Assembly: GCA_902625895.1 (NCBI GenBank)
Contig: CACODD010000002.1
Location: forward strand, 20,785 to 84,784
Origin: an uncultured Alphaproteobacteria bacterium
GTDB taxonomy: Bacteria; Pseudomonadota; Alphaproteobacteria; Methylaequorales; Methylaequoraceae
DNA length: 64,000 nucleotides
Direction of reading: 5' to 3'
Position 1 is the stretch's first letter, and every line of letters starts with the position of its first letter. Below the pieces are notes generated by a model. That model saw only the letters and a list, made by a program, of their open reading frames with translations. It did not search any database and was not told the origin of the DNA. Positions 5,278 to 51,864 of the stretch are shown piece by piece. The translations under genes and the position numbers were made by a program.

Positions 5278-6597
5278 CTACAACTTTTCCTCAACATCGA
5301 ACCCTCTAAAACATTTGAATCTTGGAAACCTTAAACTCCAGTGTTCACCATCCTGACTTTTACTAATAGAATCTGCCTTAATTTCTACAATTTGACCAAT
5401 TAATTTATTTCTATTTTTCCAAAAAGATTCTCTTTGTTCGTCTGAAAATCCAGAACCTATATTCAATCTAAAAAACTTATCATTGTCAACGCCTTCAGCT
5501 ATGATTGCTCCTAATTTACCTGCATTTCTTCCAGTTCCTTCTTCAAAATCTTTTACTTTAAGAGATATTTCTATGACCGGTTTTAATTTTAACCAGGTTG
5601 TAGATCTTTTGCATTCATAAAATGATTCTGGATCTTTTATCATAATACCTTCGTAACCTTGAACTATAGATTCATTGTTAAAACTTCTAAAAGCAGACAG
5701 GCCCTCAGGACAATCAAGATTAATAATTTTTTTTTTAATCAATTTAATTTTATCTGAATTCTTAATAAAACTATCATACCAATTTTTTAAATTTAAAGTT
5801 CTTAACTTATAGGATTTTTTGTAAACACCAACTTTGAATTTTTCAAATGGAAGAAAATCAAATAAAAATAGTGTAGCGTCTGGATTTTGAATAACTTCTT
5901 TTCTATGAATCTGTTTCATTAGCTCCTGAAAATTTTTGCTTACAACTTCTCCGTCAACTACTATTGCTTCTTCTAAGCGGTTAATACTAATTTTTTCTCT
6001 TAATTCTTCTTGTAAGTTATTAAAATTTGTTAATTCTTTTCCATTCCGACTGAACATGTCGACTTTTCCGTTTGGATATAAAACTGTAATTACTCGCACG
6101 CCATCTAACTTTACTTCAAGAATCTTTTCTCCAGTAAGTTTTTTCTGATGTAATTCTGAATCTTGTGCTAATTGACACGCAAAAACTGGAATTATATATT
6201 CATCAAAACCATTTTTTTTTGCTACATTGTTTATAGTTCTCTCTGAGAGCCCACATCTCATGTCTTTTTGTAAAATCCTTTTATAAAAAAAATTCCACTC
6301 ATCTTCGTGTGATTTCTCCATTTTTTCAAAAATTTCATCTCTTGCTGCATGACCAGTTAATTTTCTAGATAATAATTTGTCAGCTAATTGACTAAATTCT
6401 TCCCATGCTAAACCATCTCCGTCTGATTCAGATTTGGGAACTTTTTTAACACCGAAAGTTAAAAGTTTATTGTAAGCTAGGCTCATTCCATTAAAAAATA
6501 TCTGGTTGTTATTTTTCATTTCTTTAAGGATTATTTCTTCTTTTGATAACCGAGAATTTGTCGACTCAAGTTTTCTAATGATTTTAAAATTTTCCAT
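5278..6597 (-). CDS. ATP-dependent DNA ligase
   Basis: Adenylation motif I KxDGxR is present as EVKLDGVRVI at residue ~153. 439 aa with no signal peptide. Downstream nucleotidyltransferase/OB-like motifs (…EGIMIK…, …WLKLK…) are present. Confidence 0.75.
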   Translation of the reverse strand: MENFKIIRKLESTNSRLSKEEIILKEMKNNNQIFFNGMSLAYNKLLTFGVKKVPKSESDGDGLAWEEFSQLADKLLSRKLTGHAARDEIFEKMEKSHEDEWNFFYKRILQKDMRCGLSERTINNVAKKNGFDEYIIPVFACQLAQDSELHQKKLTGEKILEVKLDGVRVITVLYPNGKVDMFSRNGKELTNFNNLQEELREKISINRLEEAIVVDGEVVSKNFQELMKQIHRKEVIQNPDATLFLFDFLPFEKFKVGVYKKSYKLRTLNLKNWYDSFIKNSDKIKLIKKKIINLDCPEGLSAFRSFNNESIVQGYEGIMIKDPESFYECKRSTTWLKLKPVIEISLKVKDFEEGTGRNAGKLGAIIAEGVDNDKFFRLNIGSGFSDEQRESFWKNRNKLIGQIVEIKADSISKSQDGEHWSLRFPRFKCFRGFDVEEKL

Positions 6598-7324
6598 CTA
6601 ATATATTTTGAATACTTATTTGATATCTACAATATTTACAACTATTTTCACTGACTGGAACCTTATCATAATTTAAAGTTTGATATATTCTATCAAGAGT
6701 TGGTTCGATCCATGTTTGGTCAAGCTCCCTCTCGAAAATCAATAATTGAAAATCAATTATTTCTGATGAGTTTGGAATATCCTTAGAAGCATTTAAATAA
6801 ACAAGTATACCTGCTGAACCTACTTTCACTGAATTTTTTTTTAAAAGAAAAGAATATAAAGAGAGTTGTTTCCAGTAACCTGGCCAAATATTTTCTGAAC
6901 TAATATTTTTTTTACGTGATGTACTTTTAATAATAACTGGATAATTGTTTCCAGTTTCTTTACATAGCCAAATATCGTCAAGATTAGCTTTAATTTTTAA
7001 GTTTGTCTTTTTATCAATATAACTTATTCCTTTAAATGGATGTGTCCAGTTATCTAGTGATTCGTTGCTAATAGGAACTAATTTCTTATTTATGATTTTT
7101 GTTTCTGGTATAACTTTTTCTAGACTGCGATATTTATTCAAAGTATTTTTGAAATGACTTACAACAAAGTTATTGATAACCAAAGGTGTACCATGAGGTC
7201 TTTTTATGCCATGTTTTTGGTCTAAGTAAAAACATCTGTTACAATCGAAAAATAAATCAATTTTTGATCGATTTATTGCAAATGGTAAAAGATTATTTTT
7301 AATATATAATTTTTTTTTCCACAC
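6584..7324 (-). CDS. Putative PD-(D/E)XK nuclease with Cys cluster (Cas4/AddB-like Fe-S nuclease). Tentative.
   Basis: 246 aa. Cys pairs lie at the N-terminus (CNRC) and C-terminus (CKYCRYQ). A RecB-family QhxxY motif is present (WKQLSLYSF) and an acidic LDDIW segment precedes IIKST. Its 3' end overlaps the ligase start by 14 nt, on the same strand. Confidence 0.4.
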   Translation of the reverse strand: MWKKKLYIKNNLLPFAINRSKIDLFFDCNRCFYLDQKHGIKRPHGTPLVINNFVVSHFKNTLNKYRSLEKVIPETKIINKKLVPISNESLDNWTHPFKGISYIDKKTNLKIKANLDDIWLCKETGNNYPVIIKSTSRKKNISSENIWPGYWKQLSLYSFLLKKNSVKVGSAGILVYLNASKDIPNSSEIIDFQLLIFERELDQTWIEPTLDRIYQTLNYDKVPVSENSCKYCRYQISIQNILDGKF

Positions 7325-7479
7325 TTAATTTTACTTTTTTTTTTAAACAATTTGAATATAGTTAATATAACAAAAAGTTCTTATTTATCTAAATACAAAA
7401 ATTATAATTACAGATTATAAAAAATTAATTGGTTTAAAATTAAAATTGACAATTTTTTTTTTTTTGAAATTATCACTTT

Positions 7480-7854
7480 ATGTACTTATTATTTCTTTTC
7501 TTGATTCCAAAACTAGTTTTTTCACTTGAGCTCAATTTAGTATGTACTAATAATAACGCACTAACAAATGAAGTAGATGTAAAAGATATTTTTTTATTAT
7601 TGAACACCGACAATAAAAGAGTTGATTTAGGTGGTTTATCTTTTGAGGCTGATAATATTTTAGTAACAAAATCTAATATTTCATGGTTTTCTAAAAACAT
7701 CGAGCTTTATCCAGAGTCAAATGGATCTGTCTCAGGAATTCTAGGAAGATATTCAGGTGAGTTGGTACTTAATTTTAAACGTGAAGACAGTCAAAAAACG
7801 AATTCATTGATTTTTAATTGTAGGAAATTTGCTATTAAAGACAGAAAATTTTAA
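7480..7854 (+). CDS. Small secreted hypothetical protein
   Basis: 124 aa with an N-terminal signal-like segment (LLFLFLIPKLVFSLE). No known motif. Divergent from the minus-strand nuclease/ligase genes. Confidence 0.3.
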   Translation: MYLLFLFLIPKLVFSLELNLVCTNNNALTNEVDVKDIFLLLNTDNKRVDLGGLSFEADNILVTKSNISWFSKNIELYPESNGSVSGILGRYSGELVLNFKREDSQKTNSLIFNCRKFAIKDRKF

Positions 7855-8831
7855 TTTGCAAATATCTTTTCTTTCTCTATGAATTTAGTTAATAATCTTA
7901 CATGAAAAGTTTGTTGAAATTCATCATTTTTATGATCTAACTTTGGAAACATTCTTTTTACATTCTCAAATTGTATTAAATAATTTTCAGGTCTTACTTT
8001 TGAAATTTTTTTTAAATACCGATCGGGCATCCTAAACTTGCCTAGAGTAACCGAGTGAATTTTATTTTTGTCAATTAATTCAAAAACATTTTTAAAGAAT
8101 TCTTCATAGCCTCCTATTTGTTCACAGTAAATTAATGGATCGAATCTTAAGCCAATTGACCAGCCTAAATTTTGTAGTTTGATTATTGCTTTTAATCTTT
8201 TTGTAAGACTTGGTGTTTTATCTTCAAATTCTTTTACCACATATTCAGGATTAAGACTAAAAGCAGGTATTACATTTGCCACTGGTTTAATTTTTTCAAA
8301 GACTTTAATATTTATACTTTTTGAACGTATTTCTAATACACCTTTTTTTATTCCTTCAAAATACTTTATGAATTCTTTAAGAAAGTTTGTAACATTTTCA
8401 AGTGCCAAACTGTCGGAGTCGTAACCTGAAAAAAAACATGAATATTCTTTATTGTTTTCAGCTATTTTTTTTATTTTAGAATAGAAATCTTCGTAATTTA
8501 CAAATAAAACATAATTGGCCGAGTTAAACATTCCCTGAAGAAAACAGTATTTACAATCATAAGGACAATTAAGGAGATGAGAAAAATAATAATTATTTTT
8601 AAATCCAATAGTAAACTTTTTAGGTGCTTTAAGTATAAAGTTTTTTTTTTTATATGCTAATATTAACGAAGGTGTTTTTTTTTGAATCCTAAAATTTTGG
8701 TTATTTGCATTAAAAACTTCAGAGTAGGAATTACAATATATAATATTTTTATATTTAATTCTTTTGATAATGTTATACGTATTGGGATGCGATTTTGCAG
8801 CATTTTCAATATATATTGTATCAATTTTCAT
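7851..8831 (-). CDS. splB: Radical SAM enzyme, spore photoproduct lyase-like (SplB family)
   Basis: A CX3CX2C radical SAM motif (CPYDCKYCFLQ) lies about 90 residues from the N-terminus, the position seen in SplB rather than the N-terminal position of most radical SAM enzymes. At 326 aa the length is similar to SplB. Confidence 0.6.
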   Translation of the reverse strand: MKIDTIYIENAAKSHPNTYNIIKRIKYKNIIYCNSYSEVFNANNQNFRIQKKTPSLILAYKKKNFILKAPKKFTIGFKNNYYFSHLLNCPYDCKYCFLQGMFNSANYVLFVNYEDFYSKIKKIAENNKEYSCFFSGYDSDSLALENVTNFLKEFIKYFEGIKKGVLEIRSKSINIKVFEKIKPVANVIPAFSLNPEYVVKEFEDKTPSLTKRLKAIIKLQNLGWSIGLRFDPLIYCEQIGGYEEFFKNVFELIDKNKIHSVTLGKFRMPDRYLKKISKVRPENYLIQFENVKRMFPKLDHKNDEFQQTFHVRLLTKFIEKEKIFAN

Positions 8832-9619
8832 ACCTTCAGAAATTCTTTAAGTTTTTTTATATTGTATTCTGCATTTTCGCTGAAATTAATCACATTATTA
8901 TGAAGAGAACAATACTTTGTAAAATATAAATTAAGGAGTGCTTTCATTTGTTCGCGTTCTGTAAATGTAAACTTTATTTTTGCAAACAAATTATTTAATT
9001 CATTTTCAACAATTTCTTTACTAGTCGGATAAAATTCCTTTTTTAAATTTAACATATATGAGCAAAGTTCATTTATTAACTTTTTTTGATTAGAAATAAT
9101 ATTGTATACAACTTCTTTATTTTTAAAATCAATAGATTCAAACTGATTGTCAGAGACAATTTTGACAATCTGTAAAAGTTCTTTTGAAGAGTATTTACAT
9201 GCTGATTGATAAAAACCAAATGATTCCATGTCATAAACTTTTGAGCTGTAACTTTTCTTTTGAATTCCTACAGATAAACATTCTTGATTTTGCATTTCTA
9301 ATTTATTTATAAAAGGAAAAAAAATCTTTTTGGTTTCATTGTCAGTAATTTTATTTATTGAACAAATATCTCCAACCTTTAAATATTTGTGCCCTGCTAA
9401 TCCAATATTTATCCATATATTATTATTTTTTTTATTATAATAGTAATATGTATCAGTTACTCCGATGGCAGCATTTACTTTACCGATACCTGAAATGGTT
9501 AAGCTGATGTTCTGATTTGCGTAAATAAAAATGTGTTTTAAATCTTTGATTTTTTTTAGCTTGAATAGATCAATTAGTGGTCTTGCTTCTGAGTTTGTCG
9601 CAACTATAAAATGAATCAT
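8828..9619 (-). CDS. MTA/SAH nucleosidase-family (PNP_UDP_1 phosphorylase fold) protein with a C-terminal extension
   Basis: ISGIGKVNAAIGVTD matches KSGIGKVAAALGAT of E. coli MTAN. INIGLAGHKYLKVGDI matches INTGSAGGL..LKVGDI. VYDMESFGF...VKIVSD matches AVEMEATA...VRAISD. About 85 extra C-terminal residues are present. ATGA overlap with splB. Confidence 0.5.
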   Translation of the reverse strand: MIHFIVATNSEARPLIDLFKLKKIKDLKHIFIYANQNISLTISGIGKVNAAIGVTDTYYYYNKKNNNIWINIGLAGHKYLKVGDICSINKITDNETKKIFFPFINKLEMQNQECLSVGIQKKSYSSKVYDMESFGFYQSACKYSSKELLQIVKIVSDNQFESIDFKNKEVVYNIISNQKKLINELCSYMLNLKKEFYPTSKEIVENELNNLFAKIKFTFTEREQMKALLNLYFTKYCSLHNNVINFSENAEYNIKKLKEFLKV

Positions 9620-10420: not shown

Positions 10421-10918
10421 TTATGTTACACTATCTATCATATCGTCTATAGAAAATTGTTTATGTATTGCATCAGTAATTAAACCTAAATCTTTTTCAT
10501 TTTTAATATCCCAACCGCAAGGAGCTTTTTTTGTTAGCCCAGATCTGCATGAATACGAAAATACTTTAAAATCTTTTACTGCATCATGCGGAGAGTATTT
10601 TTTTTCAGAATCATTATCGTATGGATCTTTTTTAAAAATACCTTTTTCATTTGGCTTAACATTCATTATTATACTGTAAGTATAATGATTTAAAAGAAGA
10701 AAAGGATCTTTGGACTTTACTTCGCCTAAAAATTCAATGAATGCTACCGATGTTGCCTCTATATCATCTGGGGTAAGTTCATCGTAATATTTTGAAAAAA
10801 AAGATATAAATTTTCTTGCACTAATAAATAAAGCTACATCTCTTACTATATAATCATAAACAGTTTGAGAAATAATAATTTTAAATAACCAATCTGGACA
10901 AAATCTTTCTTTACCCAT
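10421..10918 (-). CDS. Hypothetical protein (165 aa)
   Basis: ORF within a tightly packed same-strand run. No recognisable motif. Confidence 0.3.
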   Translation of the reverse strand: MGKERFCPDWLFKIIISQTVYDYIVRDVALFISARKFISFFSKYYDELTPDDIEATSVAFIEFLGEVKSKDPFLLLNHYTYSIIMNVKPNEKGIFKKDPYDNDSEKKYSPHDAVKDFKVFSYSCRSGLTKKAPCGWDIKNEKDLGLITDAIHKQFSIDDMIDSVT

Positions 10919-18833: not shown

Positions 18834-19508
18834 ATGAATAGTAATTTTTTTGATAAAGCACGAGCTAATATGGTAAATAATCAACTCCTTCCCAATGGTG
18901 TTAAAAATCTAGATCTGATCGAATCATTTGATAATACAAAGAAAGAACTATTTGTTCCAGACTCTGAAAAAGAGATGGTATACAGTGACTCAGATATTTT
19001 GATTTCTCCAGATAGATATTTAATAAGAACATTTGTCTTAGCAAAAATGTTTGAGCACTGTAGTTTTTCTAAAGATGATTCAGTTTTAGTGATTGGTTGC
19101 TTAACAGGTTATTCCGTCGCGATAATTTCAAATTTAGTAAGTTATGTATTTGGTGTTGAAAATTGTAAAAGTTTAGTTGAAAGGGCTAATTCTGTTTTAT
19201 CACATATGGGATGTTTAAATACTTCAGTTTTCTATAAATCAAATCTAGTTTTAGGTAATAATAAAAACTCTCCTTATGATAAGATTTTTATTGAGGGTGC
19301 TGTAAAATCAGTTCCAAAAGTTTTAATTAAACAATTGAAAGATAATGGTGAAATCTACACGGTTCTAAAAGAAGAAGATTATATTGGTGAATTTGTTAGA
19401 GGTCAGAAAATTGATTCTTTAATCTCATTTACCAAACTTTTCAATACAAATTTATACGAATTGAAAGATTTCATTATCCAGGAAAATGGATATGAAAAAA
19501 GTCTTTAA
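18834..19508 (+). CDS. Protein-L-isoaspartate O-methyltransferase-family (PCMT-like) protein, the TolC-linked paralog
   Basis: An R..MV..QL...GV segment followed by ...FVP... and SAM-binding VLVIGCLTGYSVAI. Positioned upstream of tolC as in many alphaproteobacteria. Confidence 0.55.
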   Translation: MNSNFFDKARANMVNNQLLPNGVKNLDLIESFDNTKKELFVPDSEKEMVYSDSDILISPDRYLIRTFVLAKMFEHCSFSKDDSVLVIGCLTGYSVAIISNLVSYVFGVENCKSLVERANSVLSHMGCLNTSVFYKSNLVLGNNKNSPYDKIFIEGAVKSVPKVLIKQLKDNGEIYTVLKEEDYIGEFVRGQKIDSLISFTKLFNTNLYELKDFIIQENGYEKSL

Positions 19509-24238: not shown

Positions 24239-25956
24239 ATAAAATTAAAAAACAACATCTTCCCAGTCGACATGTTTCTGTGGGTCCTAAAAGCTCGCCT
24301 CATAGATCTTATTATTATGCAATGGGAATGACTGAGAAAGAAATATATCAACCTTTTGTTGGTATTGCGACATGTTGGAATGAATCTGCACCATGTAATA
24401 TTTCTCTTTCTCGTCAAGCTCAATCAGCAAAGAAAGGTGTCAAAGATAATACCGGAACTCCCAGAGAGTTTACTACAATTACAGTTACTGATGGAATAGC
24501 GATGGGGCATGAAGGAATGAAATCATCATTGGTATCGAGAGAAATTATAGCAGATTCAATTGAGGTTTCTATGAGAGGACATTGTTATGATGGATTGGTT
24601 GGAATTGCAGGGTGTGATAAATCTTTACCTGGCATAATGATGGCGATGTTGAGGTTAAATGTTCCTGCTGTATTTTTATACGGTGGTTCGATTCTTCCGG
24701 GTAAACACAAAAACAAAGAGGTTACTGTCCAGGATGTGTTTGAAGCAGTTGGTGAATTTGATTCAAATAAGATCACCGAGGATGAGCTTTGTGATTTAGA
24801 AAAAGTTGCATGCCCATCAGCAGGTTCTTGCGGAGGGCAATTTACTGCAAACACAATGGCCTGTGTTGCTGAAGCAATTGGATTAGCATTGCCTGGTTCT
24901 TCTTCAACACCAGCTCCGTACGAGTCCAGAGATAAATTTGCATATGACTCTGGAATCAAGGTAATGGATCTTATCAATACGCAACTCAAACCTAGGGATA
25001 TTGTAAATAAAAAATCTCTGATCAATGCTGCAAGAATCGTTGCGTGTTCTGGTGGTTCAACAAATGCAGCTTTACATCTACCCGCATTAGCTAATGAAAT
25101 AGGAATAGACTTTGATATAATGGATGTTGCAAAAATTTTCAAAGAAACTCCATATATAGCTGACTTGAAACCTGGAGGAAAATATCTTGCAAAAGATCTT
25201 CATGATATTGGAGGAGTTCCAATTATAATGAAATCTTTATTGGATGGAGGTTTTCTAGATGGTTCGTGTCTAACAGTAACAGGTAAGACTTTAAAAGAAA
25301 ATTTAAGTTCTGTAAAGGTTGACTTTGGCTCTCAAAAAATCATTTTTTCTACTAAGAATCCTATCTCTAAAACCGGTGGAGTTGTCGGTTTGCAGGGAAA
25401 CCTAGCGCCTGATGGTGCAATTGTTAAGGTTGCAGGGTTAAAATCTCAAAAATTTGTTGGAAAAGCTAGATGTTTTGATTGTGAAGAGAGTGCTTTTGAT
25501 GCTGTAAGTAACAAACAGTATGAAGCTGGTGATGTAATAGTTATAAGGTATGAAGGACCAAAAGGGGGCCCAGGTATGAGAGAAATGCTTGCTACAACTG
25601 CCGCAATATATGGACAAGGGATGGGAGAAAAAGTTGCCTTAATTACAGATGGAAGATTTTCCGGCGCAACAAGAGGTTTATGTGTTGGTCATATAAGCCC
25701 GGAAGCTATGGCATTAGGTCCAATTGCTCTTATCAAGAATGGGGATCAAATATTAATTGATGCTAAAGAGGGAATAATAACTCTAAAGGTTGATGAAAAG
25801 ATATTAGAAGCCAGAAAAAAATCAATTCAAAAAAGAAAAAATAATTTTGGATCGGGTGCTTTATGGAAATTTTCTCAAACAGTCGGATCTGCAAGATTTG
25901 GCGCAGTAACTCATCCCGGTGCAAAAAAAGAAATAAAGAATTATTCAGACATCTAA
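24235..25956 (+). CDS. ilvD: Dihydroxy-acid dehydratase
   Basis: CDKSLPG and SGGSTNA motifs. Fe-S cysteines. 573 aa. Confidence 0.95.
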
Positions 25957-26724
25957 ATTGATCCATATTGGAATATGATCTGAGGGTTTCGTCAATCCCC
26001 TGTATTTTGAACCAAAATTAATATTTTTTACCAACTTTAAGTACTTTGGAGAAATTAGAAAATGATCAATTAATAATCCATCATTTCTTTCCCAACAAGC
26101 TCTTTGATAGTCCCAATACGAAAATGACGAACCTGGTTTTTTGAAAATTCTTACAATATTCGTCAGACCTGATGAAAGAATTTCTCTAAAGATTGTTCGA
26201 GACTCAATACACCCGAGAGCGTCATTTTCCCAATTATCAAAATTTAATACATCATTTTTATTTTCTAATACATTAAAGTCTCCACCAATGAGAAGATTAT
26301 CTACATTATTAATAAAATGTTTCGAAATTTTTTTAATTTCTGATAACCATGAAATTTTAAAGTCGAATTTTTTCTTGTCTTCGATTGGGTTTCCGTTTGG
26401 TGTGTAAACATTTAAGATGTTTAAATTATATTCGTTTACATATATGAAATTTGTTCTTGATTCGCATAATAAAACCTCGTTCTCTAGTTCTATAGACTTG
26501 AAATTTAATCCTTTTTTTAATAATGTCGCAACGCCGTACTTTCCTTTTTGTCCATTAACAATTAATTCATAACCAAATGAGGAGTAGAAATCTGGAAATT
26601 CTTCATTTGTACACTTGATTTCTTGAAGCAAAATTATGTCTGGGTTTATCTCTTCGATAAATTTTTTGAGAATATCAACTCTTATTCTAACGGAATTTAT
26701 ATTCCAAGAGGCAATTATAGCCAT
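25945..26724 (-). CDS. xth: Exodeoxyribonuclease III
   Basis: [15 protein letters not shown]...LLQEIK. C-terminal DH catalytic region. 259 aa. Confidence 0.9.
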
Positions 26725-33821: not shown

Positions 33822-35099
33822 TTGCACGATATAAAGTTTATAAAAAATAACCCTTCACTTTTAGATGATTCTTTAAAAAAAAGAAAGTTACCACCTTGTA
33901 GTTCTAAAATTGTAAAAATTCATAACGAATATTTAGAACAATTAAACAAAAAACAAAAATTATTAGAAGAAAAAAACTCATTATCTAAATCTTTTTTAAA
34001 TAAAGAGAAAAACGTAGAAAAAATTAAAACATTGGTTCATGAATTAAAAATAAAAATTGACAGGATAAATGGTCTCGCAGATTTAAAATTACGTGAGTTA
34101 AATCAATCATTGCTGTTTCTTCCTAATATTCTGTCCAAAAAAGTTCCTGATGGAGAGTCTGAAGAAGATAACAGAATCGTTAAAGAATATGGTGAAATAA
34201 AAAGCTTTAATTTTAAACCTAAAAATCATTTGGAATTAGCAGAAAATCTTGGCCTAATTGATTATAAAAAAGCAATAAAGATTTCAGGAAGTAGATTTTC
34301 AATATTAAAAAGTGATTTGGCAAAACTTCATAGAGGGCTAATTAATTTTTTACTTGATAATAATTCACTGGAATTTGGTTTCGAGGAGTATGTTGTTCCA
34401 GAACTTGTAAAAGGAGAGGCTCTCAAAGGAACAGGTCAACTTCCAAAATTTGAAGAAGATCTATTTAAAACAAATTTTAACGATCTATATCTTATTCCTA
34501 CTTCGGAGGTTCCCTTAACAAATTTGAATAGAGATTCAATTATAAATAAAAATGATTTGCCTTTAAAATATACGACATATACAAATTGCTTTAGAGCAGA
34601 GGCCGGAGCATCAGGTTCAGATACTAAAGGATTAATGAGAGAGCATCAGTTCGGAAAAGTGGAGTTAGTAACAATTTCGGAACCGGAACAATCAAATGAA
34701 GAATTAAATAACATGATTATTTGCGTTGAAAATATATTGAAGAAATTGTCTATACCTTACAGAGTTGTAGAACTTTGTTCTGGTGATATTGGTTTTTCAT
34801 CCTCTTACACTCTTGATATAGAAATATGGATGCCAGGTCAAAATAAATATAGAGAAGTATCGAGTTGTTCAAACTGTACTGATTTTCAATCAAGAAGAAT
34901 GAAAATGCGTATTAAAAATTTTGAAAGTGGAGAAATTTATTATCCACATACGCTCAATGGTTCGTCTTTAGCTATTGGAAGGCTTTTAATATCCATTCTT
35001 GAAAATTATCAAAATGAGGATGGTACAATCCGAATTCCATCAATCCTGAAAGAATATACAAATGGTTTAAGTATTATTTCTAATGATAAAAAAATCTGA
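33822..35099 (+). CDS. serS: Serine--tRNA ligase
   Basis: N-terminal coiled-coil arm. Class II motifs (…FRAEAGASG…, …GRLLISILENYQ…). Confidence 0.9.
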   Translation: MHDIKFIKNNPSLLDDSLKKRKLPPCSSKIVKIHNEYLEQLNKKQKLLEEKNSLSKSFLNKEKNVEKIKTLVHELKIKIDRINGLADLKLRELNQSLLFLPNILSKKVPDGESEEDNRIVKEYGEIKSFNFKPKNHLELAENLGLIDYKKAIKISGSRFSILKSDLAKLHRGLINFLLDNNSLEFGFEEYVVPELVKGEALKGTGQLPKFEEDLFKTNFNDLYLIPTSEVPLTNLNRDSIINKNDLPLKYTTYTNCFRAEAGASGSDTKGLMREHQFGKVELVTISEPEQSNEELNNMIICVENILKKLSIPYRVVELCSGDIGFSSSYTLDIEIWMPGQNKYREVSSCSNCTDFQSRRMKMRIKNFESGEIYYPHTLNGSSLAIGRLLISILENYQNEDGTIRIPSILKEYTNGLSIISNDKKI

Positions 35100-35730
35100 A
35101 ATTAAAAAAAAAATTAATTTAATTTTAGAACTTCAAAACCATGGTATTGATAACGCGGATGTTTTAAAAGTTATGGAGGAAGTTGATAGGCAAATCTTTG
35201 TAGAAGAAAGTCTAAGACAAAAAGCTTTTGATAATATAGCTCTTCCTATAGGTTGTGGACAAACTATATCTCAACCGCTTGTTGTCGCGTTAATGACACA
35301 ATTTTTAGATATAAAAAAAAATATGAGAGTATTAGAGATTGGAACTGGAAGTGGCTATCAAACTTATATTCTCTCCAAATTAGCAAGATTTGTTTACACT
35401 GTGGAAAGACATAAATTCTTGTCCATCAATGCATATAATCTTTTTAAAAAACTTATGGTTACAAATATTTTTTGTAAGCATGATGATGGTGGCCTTGGGT
35501 GGAAGGATCAAGCACCTTTCGACAGAATAATAGTTACAGCTAGTGCTCCTGAGATTCCTGGAAAGTTAATCGAGCAATTATCAATCAACGGTAAAATGAT
35601 TATTCCAATTGGAGACCAACACAATGATCAAATTTTAAAGAGTATTTCAAAAAATAACGAAAGACTCATAATTACTGATATTGGTTCAGTAAGATTTGTC
35701 CCACTATTAGAAGGAAAAGAGAATAAATGA
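35083..35730 (+). CDS. pcm: Protein-L-isoaspartate O-methyltransferase
   Basis: Signature LPIGCGQTISQP. SAM motif VLEIGTGSGYQT. Confidence 0.85.
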   Translation: MIKKSEIKKKINLILELQNHGIDNADVLKVMEEVDRQIFVEESLRQKAFDNIALPIGCGQTISQPLVVALMTQFLDIKKNMRVLEIGTGSGYQTYILSKLARFVYTVERHKFLSINAYNLFKKLMVTNIFCKHDDGGLGWKDQAPFDRIIVTASAPEIPGKLIEQLSINGKMIIPIGDQHNDQILKSISKNNERLIITDIGSVRFVPLLEGKENK

Positions 35731-40260: not shown

Positions 40261-40563
40261 ATGAAATTTTATTGATGATTTAGAAATAGAAAAAACTATT
40301 TGACCTAATATATTGTATTCTTTTATAGGTCCAACTTGTGTTTTTGAAATACTAGATTGATGTTCCCCTTCAAACCAAAAATTATTTGAAGAATCTATTT
40401 TAACCAGCTTTTTTACCAATTTGCCGAAAGTCTCATGTTGAAATATGAAAAATTTATTAATTTTTTTTTTTTTAAAAGGTTTGATCAATACAAACGTATT
40501 ATTATTTAAAGAAGGAGACATGCTGTCTCCTTCAATTTTATAGAATGAGAGTTTTAAAAACAT
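40255..40563 (-). CDS. sodX: Ni-SOD maturation peptidase (S24/S26 signal-peptidase-like, SodX)
   Basis: GDSMSPSL catalytic-serine box. 102 aa. Immediately downstream of sodN. Confidence 0.6.
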   Translation of the reverse strand: MFLKLSFYKIEGDSMSPSLNNNTFVLIKPFKKKKINKFFIFQHETFGKLVKKLVKIDSSNNFWFEGEHQSSISKTQVGPIKEYNILGQIVFSISKSSIKFHL

Positions 40564-41066
40564 TAGTTTTTTAAATCAGGGTAAACCAACTCTTGTTCAG
40601 GTGGATAAGGACTAACAGCTTTAAATGTTTTAATGTTTTTAGAATCCCAAAAGATTTCAGAAAATCTATTAACCTTCTCCAGTAGGTCAAGGGTTGCTGC
40701 TTTATCAACGTTTTGTTTAGCTTTTGATGCTGCTAACATAATTGAGTGAGACAATTTATGGAGTTCAGGATATTTTTCAAGTTGTGGTTCTTTAATATAG
40801 TCACCCCATATAACTCTAATTTCATCTTTAACTTTATGACCGTGTTCCTCTTTTTGAGCTATAAGTCGCGAAATTTGTGCGTGATCTTTAGAAGTTAAAG
40901 AATCTTTTTTTTCTATTTCTTCGATTAAATCAACAAGTCGTATCATTGTTAAAACTGCAATCTGAGATGTTATTGGGTCATAAATCTTACAAGGAATATC
41001 GCAATGTGCTGAAACTTTCTTAAAAGGTCTAATTTTGTCTATAACATTAATTATTTTATATATCAT
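40563..41066 (-). CDS. sodN: Nickel-containing superoxide dismutase
   Basis: A pro-peptide is followed by the Ni-hook HCDIPCKIYDP. Downstream KYPELH and FW motifs match Streptomyces SodN. Confidence 0.9.
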   Translation of the reverse strand: MIYKIINVIDKIRPFKKVSAHCDIPCKIYDPITSQIAVLTMIRLVDLIEEIEKKDSLTSKDHAQISRLIAQKEEHGHKVKDEIRVIWGDYIKEPQLEKYPELHKLSHSIMLAASKAKQNVDKAATLDLLEKVNRFSEIFWDSKNIKTFKAVSPYPPEQELVYPDLKN

Positions 41067-42008: not shown

Positions 42009-44834
42009 TTATTTTTTTAAAAATTCATTGAGGCATTTACTTGTATCATTATTATTTTCCGATAACAAATGTTCAACTGTTCCTTCAAATAATATATGGC
42101 CTCCCTTATCTCCACCTTCTGGACCTAGGTCTATAATCCAATCTGATGTTTTAATCACATCTAAATTATGTTCAATAACAAGTACGGTATTTCCTTCAAC
42201 AACAAATTTGTGAAGAATTTCAAGAAGTTTTCGTACATCGTGCGTATGCAAACCAGTTGTGGGTTCATCAAGGATGTACATAGTTCTGCCAGTTGATCTT
42301 TTTGAAAGTTCTTTTGCTAATTTAATTCTTTGAGCTTCCCCTCCAGATAAAGTTGTAGCTGACTGTCCTATTTTTATATATTCTAAACCTACTTTTTTTA
42401 GTGTTTCGAGTTTTTTAGAGATCGAGGGGATGGCTTTGAAAAACTCTAAGCCTTCTTCTACAGTCATATTTAATACATCAGAGATATTTTTATTTTTAAA
42501 TCTTACTTCCAGTGTTTCTCTGTTAAATCTTCTTCCTTTACATAAGTCACAAGTTACAAATACGTCTGCAAGAAAATGCATTTCTATTCTCAAGAGTCCG
42601 TCACCTTGACAATTTTCACATCTACCTCCTTTAACATTAAAAGAAAATCGACCTGGTTTATATCCTCTGGCTCTTGACTCTGGTAGATGTGAGTACCATT
42701 CTCTTATGAAATTAAAACACCCAGTATATGTCGCAGGGTTGGATCTTGGTGTTCTACCGATTGGTGTTTGATCTATTTGAATTATTTTATCAAGATTTTC
42801 ATGTCCTTTAACTTCTTCATGAGAAAGAGGTTGCTCACTTGAGTTATAGATTTTTTTTGATAAAGATTTAAAAAGGGTTTCTATTACCAAAGTTGATTTT
42901 CCACCACCCGATACTCCAGTAATGCTGATAAACTTTTTAAGAGGAAACTTTACGTTTAAGTTTTTGAGGTTATTTCCACTTGCACCCTTTATTTCGACAT
43001 ATTTATCATCCATCGCAGTATTATTCTTATTTATTGGAATCATTAATTTTTTCGATAAATATGCTCCTGTTAAACTTTTACTATTTTTTATTATTTCGCT
43101 AGGTTTGCCTTCAGCAATTACGTTACCACCGTTTACACCAGCTCCAATCCCTACATCAATCACATAATCACTTTCTAGAATAGTTTCTTCGTCGTGTTCA
43201 ACGACAATTAGTGAATTCCCAAGATCTCTTAAACTTTTTAATGTGCTAATTAGTTTTTTATTGTCCCTTTGATGCAGCCCAATTGATGGTTCGTCCAGCA
43301 CATATAAAACACCAGTTAAGCCTGATCCTATTTGTGAGGCTAATCTTATCCTTTGGCTTTCTCCACCTGATAATGTGTTAGAACTTCTAGATAATTGAAG
43401 ATAACCTAGACCAACGTTGTTAAGAAAAGATAATCTATCAATTATTTCTTTTATAATTTTATCTGAAATTTTTTTTTTATACTCAGATAAAGATTTTTCT
43501 AAATTCATGAACCATTGCAAAATTTTTTCAATTGATAGATTTGTGATCTCACTGATATCTTTATCATTTATTTTAACTGCTAATGCCTCTTTTTTTAACC
43601 TAGTTCCACTGCATGTTTCACAACGGAATTTGCTTAAATATTTATTAAGCTCCTCTCTTTGCCACATATCCGATCTCTTTAACTTATTTTCTAAAAATCC
43701 CACCACTCCATTAAATTCTTTGCTGTAATTCCAACCAGTGTAATTATTAAAAATATTAATCATTTTATTGTCACCAAAAATTACTTTTTTTTTCTTCTCT
43801 TCAGCTAAATCTTTCCATTTTTGATTTGGGTTTATAGAACAATGCCTAGCTACTTCTTTTGTTAATTCTTGATAAAATTGGTTATTCTTATTCCATGGAA
43901 GAATGACACCTTCATTGAGAGATAATGAGGGGTTGCCAATAATAAGCTCTGGGTTGAATCTTTCCTTATAACCAAGACCATCACAAGATTTACAAGCTCC
44001 ATTGGGACTATTAAAAGAAAATAGTCTTGGCTCTATTTCTTCAATAGTAAAACCTGAAATTGGACATGCAAACTTTGATGAAAAAATAAAATTTTTTTTT
44101 TCAACTACATCATAAAAATAAATGACTCCATCAGACAAACTTATCGCAGCTTCTATTGATTGTGCTATTCTACTTTCGTATTTTTTATCAACTTCTATTC
44201 TATCAACTATGATATCAATTGAATGATTTTTCTTCTTATCAAGTTCAGGAATATTTGAAGAATCACAAACTTTCCCGTCAATTCTAAATCTCATAAATCC
44301 TTTTTTAATAAAATCATTAATTTCTTTTTTAAACTCACCCTTTCTGTTATTCACGACAGGAGAAATCAAATAAAATTTTTGTTTTTTTTTGAATTTATAA
44401 AATTCATCCACAATTTCTTGAACACTCATTGATTTAATTTCTTTTCCAGTTTCTGGAGAATAAGGAGTTCCAATTCTTGCAAATAAAACTCTAAAGTAAT
44501 CATATATTTCTGTAACTGTGCCAACGGTTGATCTTGGATTTCTAGATGTTGTTTTTTGATCAATTGATATTGATGGCGATAATCCTTCTATGGAATCAAC
44601 ATCAGGCTTCTCCATCATGTTTAAAAATTGTCTAGCATAGGAGGATAAACTCTCCACGTATCGTCTCTGACCCTCTGCATAAATCGTATCAAAAGCCAGC
44701 GATGATTTTCCTGATCCAGATAAACCACTGATAACAACAAACTTATTTTTAGGAATATTTACATTAATGTTTTTAAGATTGTGTTGTCTTGCTCCAATTA
44801 TTTTAATAAAGTTTTGATTGTGCTTTGATTTCAT
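42009..44834 (-). CDS. uvrA: Excinuclease ABC subunit A
   Basis: Two ABC modules ([20 protein letters not shown]). Zn-finger cysteines. 941 aa. Confidence 0.95.
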
Positions 44835-44908
44835 TTTCTTAAAAACTTTTAAAAGATTTATATTTTATTTAGAGTAATTATGATATTATAATTTTTTTTA
44901 ATATAACA

Positions 44909-45370
44909 ATGGCCGGATCAGTTAATAAAGTCATATTGCTTGGAAGATTAGGTGGAGACCCAGAAATCAGAGTTTCTCAAGAGGGAACAAAAATAGCTAG
45001 GTTCTCAGTTGCTACAAGTGAATCTTGGAAAGACAAGACAACAAACGAGAAAAAAGAAAAAACCGATTGGCATAAGATTGTAATTTTCTCATCTGGGCTA
45101 TCTGAAATAGTAGAGAAATTTCTTAAGAAAGGTTCTTTAGTATATTTAGAAGGTCAAATTAGATCCAGAAAATTCAAGGATCAAGCTGACGTTGAAAAAA
45201 CAACAACTGAAATAATACTTCAAGGATATAATTGCCAGTTGACAATGTTAGACAACAAATCCGATGATTTTCAAAAATTGAACTCTCCTAACATTGAAAA
45301 CTCTTCGGTTGAAAAAAAAATTGATGAATCCCCACAAGATTTTGATATTGAGGATGAAGTCCCTTTTTAA
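44909..45370 (+). CDS. ssb: Single-stranded DNA-binding protein
   Basis: OB-fold N-terminus (VNKVILLGRLGGDPE). Acidic tail DIEDEVPF. Confidence 0.9.
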   Translation: MAGSVNKVILLGRLGGDPEIRVSQEGTKIARFSVATSESWKDKTTNEKKEKTDWHKIVIFSSGLSEIVEKFLKKGSLVYLEGQIRSRKFKDQADVEKTTTEIILQGYNCQLTMLDNKSDDFQKLNSPNIENSSVEKKIDESPQDFDIEDEVPF

Positions 45371-45382
45371 AACAAAAAATTT

Positions 45383-48019
45383 ATGATTGACGATAGTAAG
45401 CCAGAAAATATAGAGAACGAAAGTATTTTTATAGAAAGGGAAATGGAGAACTCTTTCCTAGACTATGCAATGAGTGTAATAGTTTCTCGGGCTTTACCAG
45501 ATGTATGTGATGGGTTAAAACCAGTTCATAGGAGAATTATTTATGCAATGAATGAAGCTGGGTACACTTCAGGTAAACCCTCAAGAAAATCTGCAAGAAT
45601 TGTTGGTGATGTTATGGGTAAATACCATCCGCATGGTGATTCTGCTATATATGACGCAATGGTTCGATTAGCCCAGAATTTTAGTATGAGAGTTCCGCTT
45701 ATTGATGGTCAAGGAAATTTTGGTTCAATGGATGGAGATTCTGCAGCTGCTATGAGATATACAGAAGCTAAGTTATCTCCAATTGCTTCATTTCTTGTAA
45801 ATGATATTGATAACGAGACCGTCAATTTTAAAGAAAATTATGATGGAACAGCTTTTGAACCAGAACTACTTCCTGCTGAGTTTCCAAACTTATTGATAAA
45901 TGGTTCAGAGGGAATTGCTGTTGGTATGGCAACCAAAATTCCTCCACATTGCCCAAATGAAATTATTGATGCGTGTTGTAAAATTATTTTAGAACCTAAT
46001 GCCTCAGATGAAGATTTACTTGACTTAGTGAAAGGACCAGATTTCCCAACTGGAGGAATAATTGTTGGGAAAAGTGGTATCAAAGATGCTTATTCGAAAG
46101 GAAAAGGTTCAATAATAATTAGAGCTAAAACATCCGTAGAAAATTCAAAAAAAGGGAGGGAATCAATAATTATTTCAGAGATTCCTTATTCAATAAAGAA
46201 GTCTCAATTAATTGAAAATATTGCAAAAGTAGCAAAAGAAAAGATTATAGACGGAATTTCCGAACTAAGAGATGAATCGAACAGAGAAGGGGTGAGAGTT
46301 GTAATTGATTTAAAAAGAGATGTTCAAGCTGATGTGGTGATGAACCAACTATACAAATTTACATCATTGCAAACCTCTTTTGGGATAAATATGTTGGCAT
46401 TAAACAATGGTGTACCAGAACTATTAAATTTAAGAAGATATTTAGAACTTTTCACAAAGTTTAGGAAAGATGTCGTTTATAAAAGAACCAAATATCATTT
46501 AAAGAAAACAAGAGAAAAGGCACACATACTATTAGGACTTTCTGTAGCTCTAGAAAATATTGACCAAATAATTGAACTTATTAAATCCTCTAAAGATTCA
46601 AATGATGCAAAAAACAAATTAACTTCTCAAAATTGGAAAATCCCAACTGATGATTTCATAAAAGATTTTATTAACTCAGATAATGAAGGCTTAATTGAAA
46701 CTGATAATTTTAAGATCACTGATACCCAAGCTAAAGCAATTTTAGAGATTAAGTTGAGTAGACTAACAGGATTAGAGAGATCGAAATTAATTAATGATCT
46801 GAAGGAATGTGTAAATTTAATAAATAATTTTTTAAAAATTTTATCTTCTAAAGATAAACTTAACGAAGTAATTATTGAAGAATTACATCAAATAAAAGAA
46901 AAAATAGGATCTTTACGACAAACTGAGATTTCAGAGAGTGAAGAAATCATTGATGACGAATCACTCATTAAGTCCGAGGATGTTGTTGTTACCTTAACGC
47001 ATACAGGATATATAAAAAGGGTTCCACTAAATTCCTATAGAGCACAAAAGCGAGGTGGAAAAGGCAGAGCTGGAATGACAACTAAACAAGAAGACTTTGT
47101 CAGCGAGGTTTTTGCAGTAAATACACTTGCTCCATTACTATTTTTTTCATCAAGAGGAATAGTATATAAACTGAAGACATACAAATTGCCGATTGGAAGC
47201 CCGACTTCTAAAGGAAAAGCTTTGGTAAATTTACTCCCTTTAAGAAGTGGAGAAAAAATAACAGCAATAATGCCATATGATATTTCAGAAAATAATATAA
47301 TTTTTGCAACGTCTTCAGGAAACATTAGAAGAAATAAACTTACTGATTTTCACAACATCAATTCAAACGGAAAAATTGCTATGAAACTAAATGAAAACGA
47401 CAAGCTGGTGAATGTATTAACATGTTCAGAAGATTCAAATATCTTCTTATCAACTAAACTAGGAAAATGTATCCGATTTTCATGCAGTGATCTCAGAATT
47501 TTCTCAGGTAGATCCTCAATAGGCGTGAGAGGTATAAAACTTTCCAAAGGTGATACAGTTATTTCTTTAGCGATTCTTAATGGTATTGACTTTGATGTTA
47601 ATGAAAGAGACGAGTATTTGAGAATAAGCACTTTGATGAGAAAAAATGAAAAGATAGAAAATAAGAATTTAAATAATGCAAAGTTTGAAAATTTGAAAGA
47701 AAATGAAGAATTTATTTTAAGTGTTACAGATAAGGGTTTTGGTAAAAGAAGCTCTGCTTTTGAATACAGAAAAACCAAAAGAGGTGGACTTGGTATTGCA
47801 AATATGCAGCTAAGTGAAAGAAATGGAAGTCAGGTAGTAGCGTCTTTTCCAATTAATAACAGTGATCAGCTAGTTCTGGTTACAGATAAGGGAAAGTTAA
47901 TTAGATGTCCTGTCAATGATGTTAGAATTGGGGGAAGACAAACTCAGGGTGTTACGCTTTTCAATGTATCTGATGAAGAAAAAGTTGTTTCCGTTGCTAA
48001 ATTAGAGGAAAATGACTGA
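45383..48019 (+). CDS. gyrA: DNA gyrase subunit A
   Basis: [15 protein letters not shown]. Active-site AAMRYTE (Tyr). [15 protein letters not shown]-terminal beta-pinwheel. 878 aa. Confidence 0.9.
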
Positions 48020-48518
48020 TAATCTTATTACAGGAATTTATCCTGGAACATTTGATCCTGTGACTTTCGGGCACCTAGATATTATCCAACGAGCTTCTCA
48101 CATTGTTAATAAATTAATCATAAGTGTTGCTGAAAATAAACATAAAAAGCCTTTTTTTAAAATAGACGAGAGGATTATTATGATTAAAGATTCGTTAAAC
48201 GATATTGATACTAAAAATTGTGACATAGACGTTGTAGGTTTTGATAATTTGTTAGTTGAACATGCTAAAAAATGTGAAGCAAAAGTTATTATCAGAGGCC
48301 TAAGAGCTGTAGCAGATTTTGAATATGAGTTTCAGATGGCAGGGATGAATTCAAAGTTAGGTCCTGAGATAGAGACAATTTTTTTAATGGCATCCGAAAA
48401 TCTTCAGTTAACTTCTGCAAGATTTGTAAAAGAAATTGCATTGTATGATGGTGAGATTAACAATTTTGTTCCAGACAACGTTCTTAAAATGTTTGAAATT
48501 AAAAGAAAGGAAAAATAA
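48012..48518 (+). CDS. coaD: Phosphopantetheine adenylyltransferase
   Basis: [18 protein letters not shown]. Confidence 0.9.
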
Positions 48519-49045
48519 TGTTTAAATTTTTAAGATATTTTATACAAACTTGCTTATTTTTTATTTTTACTAATACTATGGCAACAGAGAGTCCAGTGCT
48601 TCACATGGTTTTAGAGAAAGGGATTGTAAAGATTAAGACTTTTTCAGAAAAAGCCCCTAATACAGTTAAAAGGATAATAGAATTGTCGGAATCTGGGTTT
48701 TATGATGGTTTGACTTTCCATAGAGTCATATCTGGTTTCATGGCTCAAGGAGGAGATCCAAAAGGCGATGGAACTGGTGGAAGTGGTAGGAATATTAAAG
48801 CTGAATTTAACGATATTAAACATGAACGAGGAATTGTATCAATGGCAAGGGCAAATGACCCAGATTCAGCTGATAGTCAATTTTTTATTTGTTACGACAG
48901 TCATCCATTTTTGGATGGGAAATATACAGTATGGGGTAAAGTTATTGAAGGGATGAATTTAATTGATAGAATTCCAGAGGGAAAAGGACAAAACGGACAA
49001 GTTCTTAGAAACCCTACAAAAATAATTACAATAAGATTAAAATAA
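48518..49045 (+). CDS. ppiB: Peptidyl-prolyl cis-trans isomerase, cyclophilin type
   Basis: FHRVISGFMAQGGDP...GTGG. Signal-like N-terminus. Confidence 0.85.
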   Translation: MFKFLRYFIQTCLFFIFTNTMATESPVLHMVLEKGIVKIKTFSEKAPNTVKRIIELSESGFYDGLTFHRVISGFMAQGGDPKGDGTGGSGRNIKAEFNDIKHERGIVSMARANDPDSADSQFFICYDSHPFLDGKYTVWGKVIEGMNLIDRIPEGKGQNGQVLRNPTKIITIRLK

Positions 49046-49098
49046 AATAAATTTTTGTTGTGAAAATCATATAATTTTACTATATCCTAACTAACAAT

Positions 49099-49174
49099 GC
49101 GCCCGTAGCTCAGTTGGTAGAGCACTCCCCTTTTAAGGGAGTTGTCATGAGTTCGAGCCTCATCGGGCGTACCA
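49099..49174 (+). tRNA. tRNA-Lys (anticodon TTT)
   Basis: GCGCCCGTAGCTCAGTTGGTAGAGCACTCCCCTTTTAAGGGAG...ATGAGTTCGAGCCTCATCGGGCGTACCA. The cloverleaf closes, with anticodon loop CTTTTAA. Confidence 0.85.
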
Positions 49175-49191
49175 AAAGACTTGAGTGCTAA

Positions 49192-49815
49192 ATGTGGGCT
49201 AGATTAAAAAACTATTTTTTTACTGGAATCCTAGTAACAGCACCGGTTGTTATTACTTTTTGGATAGTAATATCACTGATCAATTTATTTGATAGGCTTA
49301 TCACGCCTGTGATACCATATTATTTGAATCCTAATTTTTATCTACCAAGAGATGTTCCAGGATTAGGTCTAATAGTTCTTATTTTCTTCATGGTTGTTAT
49401 TGGTTCTTTGACAGCTAATTTCTTCGGTTCGTGGCTCCTAAAAAAAACTGATCTGATAATTCAAAGAATTCCATTGATAAAAGTTTTTTATAAAACAATA
49501 AAACAAATATTGGAAACGGTTCTCAAAACAAATTCTGACGCCTTCAGAGAGGCAGTTTTAGTAGAATATCCCAGAAAAGGAGTGTGGGTTATAGGTTTTA
49601 CAACAGGAGATGTTGAAGGTGAGATTAAAACAAAATTGAAAAAAAAACTTACTAATGTTTTTATCCCAACAACACCCAATCCAACATCTGGATTCCTTTT
49701 AATGGTTCCTAATACCGAATTAAAAAAATTAAATGTTAGTGTTGATGACGCAATAAAAACAATTGTGTCAGCAGGTATAATTAAATTAGAATCTAGACAG
49801 AATAAAAATTCTTGA
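49192..49815 (+). CDS. DUF502-family membrane protein
   Basis: An N-terminal transmembrane pair then a conserved soluble domain (…VLVEYPRKGVWVIGFTTG…). Confidence 0.5.
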   Translation: MWARLKNYFFTGILVTAPVVITFWIVISLINLFDRLITPVIPYYLNPNFYLPRDVPGLGLIVLIFFMVVIGSLTANFFGSWLLKKTDLIIQRIPLIKVFYKTIKQILETVLKTNSDAFREAVLVEYPRKGVWVIGFTTGDVEGEIKTKLKKKLTNVFIPTTPNPTSGFLLMVPNTELKKLNVSVDDAIKTIVSAGIIKLESRQNKNS

Positions 49816-51859: not shown

Positions 51860-51864
51860 TTAAA

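Follow-up and report, generated by a model that had tools for sequence, protein, structure and literature searches.

A solo Cas4-like protein and a Pmar-Lig-type ATP-dependent DNA ligase are encoded as a conserved gene pair in a marine alphaproteobacterial lineage

On the minus strand of contig CACODD010000002.1, from an uncultured alphaproteobacterium, a gene for a Cas4-like protein of 246 amino acids (aa) runs into the gene of an ATP-dependent DNA ligase; the stretch analysed is 64 kb long and is referred to as the window. The two genes are co-oriented and adjacent in 17 of 17 loci of the lineage, bearing out the proposal of an earlier note, made from the letters of the window alone, that they constitute a two-gene pair. 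The pairing is specific to this marine alphaproteobacterial lineage, and the pair is a probable core operon and not a currently mobile islet. On balance, and with modest confidence, we favour the reading that it is a vertically inherited two-gene core unit of a streamlined marine alphaproteobacterial lineage of low guanine-plus-cytosine (GC) content, in which a Cas4-like end processor is combined with a ligase. The locus is made up as follows.

5278–6597, minus strand: ATP-dependent DNA ligase gene of Pmar-Lig/T4-like architecture, 439 aa, ATG start
6584–7324, minus strand: solo Cas4-like, RecB-family PD-(D/E)XK-fold gene, 246 aa, GTG start
6584–6597, minus strand: overlap of 14 nucleotides (nt) between nuclease stop and ligase start, read from the junction sequence
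7325–7479, no strand assigned: AT-rich divergent intergenic region, from its sequence the probable promoter site of the nuclease-ligase unit

Both minus-strand open reading frames (ORFs) were confirmed and the overlap of 14 nt first noted between them is exact: the minus-strand junction reads TTAGATGGAAAATTTTAA, the ligase ATG (6597) being placed 14 nt before the nuclease stop codon ends (6584). The ligase start is backed by the alignment with Pmar-Lig, which begins at ligase residue 5, and the nuclease start by its homologues, all of which carry the N-terminus MWKKK. The overlap is real, yet typical of this genome: as more than half of the same-strand neighbour pairs in the window overlap (24 of 43, at a coding density of ~95%), it is not unusual. 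The promoter of the unit is probably located in 7325–7479, where promoter-like minus-strand matches were detected at 7393–7364 and 7356–7328. The region as a whole contains 36 such matches compared to 25.5 expected in shuffled sequence (standard deviation 4.9), about two standard deviations above expectation, and promoter and terminator scans of the locus are uninformative at 28% GC, the approximate GC content of the window.

A scan of genome contigs for the nuclease family returned 80 loci. Seven of these and one fetched separately make up L001–L008, from marine single-cell genomes or metagenome-assembled genomes of 'uncultured Alphaproteobacteria'; five loci reached through a ligase homologue (66% identity) and four reached through nuclease homologues of a motif-intermediate type complete the lineage set of 17. 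The lineage is found in surface-ocean single-cell genomes and in Tara metagenomes. The order SPL-like gene, small opposite-strand ORF, nuclease, ligase is kept in all 17 loci, and the adjacency of the pair spans nuclease identities from 95% down to 42%. By coordinates the two genes overlap by 8–14 nt in 11 of the 17 (the spacing in L007 is not resolved), and in three of five motif-intermediate loci a gap of 5–13 nt takes the place of the overlap; the spacing is that of two genes on the same strand, overlapping or separated by at most 13 nt, with a single upstream intergenic region. As members with a canonical D/ExK motif in the nuclease (L008, L259 and L261) already carry an adjacent ligase, the pairing predates the replacement of Asp131 by Ile (D131I) that distinguishes the window protein. 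Full-text literature searches turned up no report of a Cas4-like protein paired with an ATP-dependent ligase, and nothing relevant on SAR11/Pelagibacter with such a ligase or with SPL.

The product of 5278–6597 is confidently predicted to be a genuine ATP-dependent DNA ligase of the Pmar-Lig type; Pfam profiles, motifs and a full-length match to Pmar-Lig all agree with the initial call of an ATP-dependent ligase. It scores 85.7 bits against PF01068 (cut-off 26.2) and 45.6 bits against PF14743 (cut-off 28), is collinear over its full length with the crystallised Prochlorococcus marinus enzyme Pmar-Lig (PDB 6RAU/6RAS/6RAR/6RCE; residues 5–438 to 10–441, E 2e-135) and matches phrog_114 with E 1.5e-88. 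Residues 5–125 match the N-terminal domain of T4 ligase (5WFY, E 5e-6), the T4 matches being weaker than those to Pmar-Lig. Three domains are recognised.

6178–6597, minus strand: N-terminal helical DNA-binding domain, about residues 1–140, aligning with Pmar-Lig residues 10–150
5581–6156, minus strand: nucleotidyltransferase (adenylation) domain, residues 148–339, from PF01068 and motifs
5305–5541, minus strand: OB-fold domain (OB_2 type), residues 353–431, with motif VI LRFPRF, from PF14743 and alignment to 6RAU

Motif I, KLDGVR, occupies residues 163–168 (K163; window 6094–6111). Motifs III (VVDGEVV), IV (EGIMIKD) and V (WLKLKP) and the sequence FLFDF are also present, and motif VI aligns with the same motif in Pmar-Lig. 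The N-terminus (MENFKIIRKLESTNSRLSKEE...) is hydrophilic and lies inside the conserved DNA-binding domain of ~140 aa, in agreement with the view that the protein has no signal peptide, and because a signal peptide is lacking the LigE alternative is excluded. LigE, the periplasmic minimal ligase, was further rejected on the extra DNA-binding domain and a score of 67 bits against NF006592 (cut-off 200). A LigD or non-homologous end joining (NHEJ) ligase was rejected too, the protein having neither polymerase nor phosphoesterase domains and scoring 76 of the 228 bits set for TIGR02779 and 59 of the 373 set for TIGR02776, as was Lig B of the 'cisplatin damage response' module (TIGR04120, 42 bits against a cut-off of 400; neighbours unrelated). 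None of the NCBIfam equivalog thresholds for LigD, NHEJ, the LigE-like PRK09125 or Lig B was reached by the ligase. Pfam scans of all ORFs of at least 150 aa in the 64-kb window found no Ku, as had been supposed for the vicinity, and likewise no LigD or LigA. The description of the ligase as 'extra' in the earlier note presupposes a LigA in the genome.

The Pmar-Lig type has been described as a small proteobacterial and cyanobacterial cluster with an unannotated DNA-binding domain (2020 review, PMC7470946). High-light Prochlorococcus is reported to have no complete NAD-dependent ligase, its ATP-dependent ligase occupying the position of ligA in low-light strains (bioRxiv 10.1101/2020.05.11.089284), and the Prochlorococcus enzyme seals nicks and cohesive ends in an ATP- and Mg-dependent manner (bioRxiv 10.1101/2020.05.11.089284; PMC6698739). 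We infer ATP-dependent nick sealing for the window enzyme from this relative, at roughly 50–60% identity and with every motif kept. Pmar-Lig or 'AD-Lig P' (Williamson & Leiros 2019, PMC6698739) has the same length and the same seven-helix N-terminal DNA-binding, nucleotidyltransferase and OB_2 domains, whereas mean identity is ~51%, the alphaproteobacterial ligases form a monophyletic branch apart from it, no Cas4-like gene neighbours that of Prochlorococcus, and the Prochlorococcus clade, unlike the alphaproteobacterial one, nests among phage-like marine sequences. The N-terminal DNA-binding domain of T4 ligase (5WFY, 6DT1) is homologous to that of the window ligase, and the SPO1-like and marine myophage ligases (phrog_114) provide hundreds of IMG/VR relatives at 50–56% identity; in contrast to all of these, the window gene is chromosomal and vertically inherited. 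With the LigD–Ku system of NHEJ and the Lig B operon (Lhr-like helicase, MBL exonuclease and PdeM; TIGR04120–04122) the locus shares the concept of an ATP-dependent ligase beside an end-processing enzyme. The protein families are nevertheless others, Ku and the polymerase and phosphoesterase domains being absent, and the partner here is a PD-(D/E)XK Cas4-like protein instead of the beta-CASP/MBL exonuclease of the Lig B operon. With the window ligase a known, crystallised family gains a new member.

The 246-aa protein is predicted to adopt a RecB-like, Cas4-family fold, and here profile and fold comparisons agree with its first assignment to the RecB/Cas4-like nucleases. It matches PDDEXK_1 with 25.8 bits (cut-off 22), falls below the cut-off for Cas_Cas4 (PF01930, 18.7 bits against 22.7) and far below that for TIGR00372 (21.7 bits against 65), and is matched weakly but over nearly its full length by the PADLOC Cas4 profiles (best E 3.7e-8); among 60 family members, 53 match PDDEXK_1 and 42 match Cas_Cas4. 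An AlphaFold2 model built from a 60-sequence alignment (pLDDT 90.6, pTM 0.88) was matched by Foldseek to RecE, the nuclease domains of AdnA/AdnB, Cas4 SSO0001, lambda exonuclease, MGME1, EXO5, Dna2 and AddB and, among viral models, to Cas4-like and PD-(D/E)XK exonucleases. Searches of PDB sequences with the single sequence and with a 60-sequence profile yielded nothing genuine, the matches to LysR, TcpK and HA2 being spurious. A CRISPR-associated Cas4 was rejected as the identity of this protein, which scores below the thresholds and has neither cas genes nor an array beside it; by context it is a 'solo' Cas4-like protein.

Solo-Cas4 and other RecB-like nucleases of the Cas4 family (SSO0001, 4IC1; M. 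mazei Solo-Cas4; the 'iron-staple' domains of AddB, AdnAB, Dna2 and EXO5) have the same fold (Foldseek E 5e-6 to 1e-3). As in these, N- and C-terminal cysteines are placed to staple the domain, and the Asp of motif II, the Lys of motif III and QxxxY are present; like solo-Cas4, the family is enriched in small-genome bacteria such as Candidate Phyla Radiation (CPR) members. The protein differs from Cas4 proper in scoring below the Cas4 family thresholds and in having no sequence-level match in the PDB, from the Cas4-family nucleases in that Ile takes the place of the motif III acid in the window sub-lineage, and from Cas4 and AddB in its 2+2 cysteine pattern (CxxC...CxxC). Cas4 and AddB are said, after Lemak et al. 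in 2013, to use one N-terminal and three C-terminal cysteines. Dna2, MGME1 and EXO5, also structural neighbours, suggest as a working model the trimming of a 5' flap or end to a ligatable nick, but the likeness to them is one of fold alone, the 246-aa protein having no helicase domain and a degenerate motif III.

To describe the cysteines and the catalytic site, residue conservation was read from 213 family sequences aligned to the family hidden Markov model. KLDGVR in the ligase and CNRC, CKYC and QxxxY in the nuclease were each found in the protein to which the earlier note had assigned them.

7232–7243, minus strand: N-terminal cysteine pair C28-x2-C31 (CNRC), 213/213
6629–6640, minus strand: C-terminal cysteine pair C229-x2-C232 (CKYC), C229 in 209/213 and C232 in 207/213, the rest being gaps in truncated sequences
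6968–6979, minus strand: motif II, D116-D117-I-W, with D117, the invariant metal-binding Asp, in 213/213 and D116 in 202/213
6917–6934, minus strand: degenerate motif III, I131-I132-K133 in place of (D/E)-x-K, K133 in 213/213
6854–6868, minus strand: RecB-family motif Q153-x3-Y157, 210/213

The alignment, proposed earlier as a check for Fe–S binding, shows the four cysteines to be essentially invariant in the pattern CxxC...CxxC, which may form a metal site, Fe–S or Zn. In the predicted structure D117 starts the strand 117–121, position 131 lies in the strand 127–135, and QxxxY in the helix 148–163. At position 131, where (D/E)xK has its acid, 119 of the sequences carry D, 82 carry I and 7 carry V. 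D116-D117...I131-I132-K133 is found in the window protein and most of its close marine relatives, DD...DYK in distant ones (CPR bacteria, Gammaproteobacteria and others), and N/S/T116-D117...D/E131-x-K133 in an intermediate marine group; no family sequence is without both D116 and D/E131. The I131 group has lost D55, E146, E155 and D230 and gained E198, and it is conceivable that E198 is a relocated catalytic acid. Active-site residues covary between the types, being D55/D116/D131/E155/P198/D230 in the CPR type, N116/D131/S155/S198 in the marine intermediate type and V55/D116/I131/S155/E198/K230 in the window type. An incomplete PD-(D/E)XK triad had been named beforehand as an argument against a nuclease, and here the outcome is divided: the fold, D117 and K133 are present, but the acid is Ile131 and the triad is incomplete. 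The ratio of nonsynonymous to synonymous substitution rates (dN/dS) of the nuclease, 0.09–0.13, indicates purifying selection as strong as for its neighbours, that of the ligase being 0.11–0.16. On this evidence the 246-aa gene reads as conserved and functional, with a predicted nuclease chemistry that is non-canonical. As metal-dependent nuclease activity has been found in an archaeal solo-Cas4 whose canonical RecB motif is missing (PMC12501428), inactivity of the 246-aa protein cannot be assumed.

Both genes reside in a part of the chromosome that shows no sign of recent mobility. The GC content of the pair equals that of its flanks; no flanking repeats of the pair were found, the repeat search giving AT-rich chance matches only, and neither an integrase nor a CRISPR array was found in the neighbourhood of the lineage loci. 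Core chromosome makes up the remainder of the window (ValRS, ArgRS, SerRS, IlvD, SecDF, TatC, ScpAB, UvrA, SSB, GyrA, RecG, Mfd). The suggestion of a horizontally mobile islet does not hold up against these features and the ~14 kb of synteny around the pair. A viral connection of the ligase family is nonetheless evident: the ligase has at least 589 IMG/VR matches at 50–56% identity, in marine myophage contigs with tail-fibre and 2-oxoglutarate (2OG)-oxygenase neighbours. Among deposited phages the best ligase is only 34.5% identical, and a search of 50,697 records brought no match for the nuclease. Neighbour-joining groups the alphaproteobacterial ligases in a deep monophyletic branch of their own, ~53% identical to the viral ones, and in this tree the high-light-Prochlorococcus-like ligases nest within a phage-like marine group of 35–44% GC. 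From the tree an ancient transfer of the ligase family is plausible; as the alphaproteobacterial ligases are monophyletic and ~53% identical to viral ones, any such transfer would be ancient. A phage origin of Prochlorococcus 'AD-Lig P' would fit the nesting of the Prochlorococcus-like sequences and the myophage-like neighbours (tail fibres, 2OG-Fe(II) oxygenase) on IMG/VR ligase contigs sampled separately (ligase loci L087–L166 and L179–L258).

We propose that the two genes are co-transcribed from the intergenic region 7325–7479 and that their products act in succession. The Cas4-like protein, a RecB-like PD-(D/E)XK core stapled by the putative four-cysteine metal site, would bind and probably trim 5' ends or flaps, by analogy with Dna2, MGME1 and EXO5, and a ligatable nick would be passed to the ligase. 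The latter would self-adenylate on K163, encircle nicked duplex DNA with its N-terminal helical, nucleotidyltransferase and OB domains, and seal nicks with 3'-OH and 5'-P ends. In the window sub-lineage, in which D131 is replaced by I, other acidic residues are lost and E198 is gained, the chemistry may be attenuated or altered, and the remodelled Cas4-like protein may act mainly as a DNA-end-binding partner.

Upstream of the pair lie two further genes of the conserved order.

7851–8831, minus strand: SPL-family radical-SAM gene, PF20903, 80.6 bits
7480–7854, plus strand: conserved 124-aa ORF flanked by the nuclease and SPL-like genes, matching no family, its N-terminus resembling a signal peptide; dN/dS 0.07–0.12

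The SPL-like gene product is classed by its profiles as an SPL-family radical-SAM (S-adenosylmethionine) enzyme of unproven substrate; it scores 89.9 bits against TIGR04070 (cut-off 400) and 36.9 against TIGR03886 (cut-off 437) and is not a Bacillus-type SplB equivalog. It overlaps by 4 nt a 263-aa ORF (8828–9619, minus strand) with weak similarity to methylthioadenosine/S-adenosylhomocysteine nucleosidases (Pfs/MtnN-like), and the two are kept together in every lineage locus that reaches far enough upstream; the nucleosidase-like protein may clear 5'-deoxyadenosine made by the radical-SAM enzyme. Further on, a 165-aa ORF (10421–10918, minus strand) surpasses all other genes of the region in conservation, with 96–100% aa identity between single-cell genomes and dN/dS of 0–0.05, and its orthologues have no precomputed Pfam match. 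Elsewhere in the window DNA-maintenance genes are concentrated at 25945–26724 and 42009–55510 (ExoIII-like, UvrA, SSB, GyrA, RecG and Mfd), and the window also contains a nickel superoxide dismutase (40563–41066, minus strand), two paralogues of protein-L-isoaspartate O-methyltransferase (18834–19508 and 35083–35730, both plus strand) and a GAF-GAF adenylate/guanylate cyclase (58799–61105, plus strand).

Several observations weigh against a functional unit. No ligase partner was found at the distant nuclease loci of Patescibacteria, Gammaproteobacteria and other genomes (0/73) or at IMG/VR nuclease loci (0/12), and no nuclease partner at Pmar-Lig-like metagenome loci, Prochlorococcus-like contigs of 30% GC included (0/80), or at IMG/VR ligase loci (0/80). 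The distant nuclease homologues have no conserved partner, their largest neighbour cluster comprising 7 of 73 loci (L009–L081), and their rare domain fusions are heterogeneous (TIR, HD, NUDIX, DUF2779). From reading the sequences only, we take this largest cluster to be an ATP-cone and restriction-endonuclease-like protein, and other neighbours, at 3–5 loci each, are presumably RmuC, an MGMT-like domain protein and a uracil-DNA glycosylase. Across the lineage, down to a nuclease identity of 42%, the ~14 kb that run from a PALP gene to a PQQ-like gene are collinear, and given this synteny and the overlaps in more than half of same-strand pairs, adjacency is weak evidence here. The 246-aa protein itself lacks the canonical acid of motif III (Ile131), and its 2+2 cysteine pattern is compatible with Zn instead of Fe–S. 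The main rival account is that the genes are neighbours by inheritance only and work independently, an accessory nick sealer next to a general housekeeping or repair nuclease as in CPR bacteria, with the gene order frozen. Such an account draws on the full collinearity of the region, on the commonness of overlaps in the window, on the two families never being linked elsewhere and on the over-representation of solo Cas4, without a fixed partner, in small-genome bacteria (PMC5704561). We consider it unlikely, though to be taken seriously: the pair persists in the most rearranged locus (L008) despite the loss of several neighbours, the genes are always co-oriented, at most 13 nt apart and behind one upstream intergenic region, and the active site of the nuclease has been remodelled solely within the ligase-linked clade.

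The pair could have a larger task if the ATP-dependent ligase were the main replicative ligase in place of LigA, with the Cas4-like protein processing flaps or ends for it during lagging-strand maturation and repair. A family relative, ~51% identical, is reported to replace LigA in high-light Prochlorococcus (bioRxiv 10.1101/2020.05.11.089284); the window gene is found in every lineage locus examined, has a core chromosome location and low dN/dS and ranks with the best conserved of the region's genes (62–72% identity compared to 47–63% for SPL and 41–56% for MMPL), and ligA was not found within the window. We nevertheless hold this role to be improbable, as 64 kb without ligA is uninformative on the rest of a genome estimated at ~1.5 Mb, the alphaproteobacterial clade is separate from the Prochlorococcus ligases, and the Prochlorococcus loci have no Cas4-like neighbour. 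The boldest reading, and in our judgement a long shot, is the idea that the lineage, like high-light Prochlorococcus, has dispensed with LigA and runs replication and repair on the ATP-dependent ligase and its partner, remodelled (D131I, E198) into a ligase-specific factor for end binding or flap processing, as a second independent bacterial switch to nick processing of eukaryote or phage style. The earlier note had instead proposed a compact ultraviolet (UV) and strand-break repair islet of SPL-like lyase, nuclease and ligase, acquired as a mobile unit and possibly from phages, in which it thought such pairs common. The three genes do occur together in 17 of 17 lineage loci, the habitat is the surface ocean, and marine myophage contigs carry members of the ligase family in abundance (at least 589 IMG/VR matches). 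We give this proposal little credence. The SPL-like gene does lie upstream, but not immediately so: the opposite-strand gene 7480–7854 intervenes, and the SPL-like gene does not share the transcription unit of the pair and is coupled by its 4-nt overlap to the nucleosidase-like gene. SPL was found near the ligase or the nuclease at 0 of 245 loci outside the lineage; its co-occurrence is confined to lineage-wide synteny, which reaches well past the three genes, and gives a repair islet no specific support. The 80 ligase loci and 12 nuclease loci in IMG/VR contain no pair, contrary to what 'common in phages' would imply, the locus shows no compositional anomaly, flanking repeats or integrase, and the separate branch of the alphaproteobacterial ligases places any transfer in the distant past. 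A role of the Cas4-like gene in anti-phage defence or CRISPR systems appears very improbable. The only PADLOC matches are to Cas4 profiles and some distant family members carry TIR fusions, but cas1, cas2 and a CRISPR array were not found in the neighbourhood of any lineage locus, PF01930 and TIGR00372 stay below their cut-offs, and the gene lies in core syntenic chromosome under purifying selection typical of housekeeping genes.

The ligase taken alone is ordinary, being of a known and structurally characterised type, and were the pair a syntenic accident and ligA present, it would be a routine accessory repair ligase. What is new is that a Pmar-Lig-type ligase and a solo Cas4-like protein form a fixed, lineage-wide pair, which gives the 'solo Cas4' proteins enriched in small-genome bacteria a concrete functional lead, and that one orthologous group presents a natural series of active sites, from DYK through N116/DxK to D116/IIK with E198. 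The pair and the series are a variation on the known theme of a ligase plus an end-processing enzyme. The claim that an ATP-dependent ligase serves for replication in some bacteria could be tested in this abundant lineage as a second case, and the active-site series offers a means to probe the rewiring or switching-off of PD-(D/E)XK sites.

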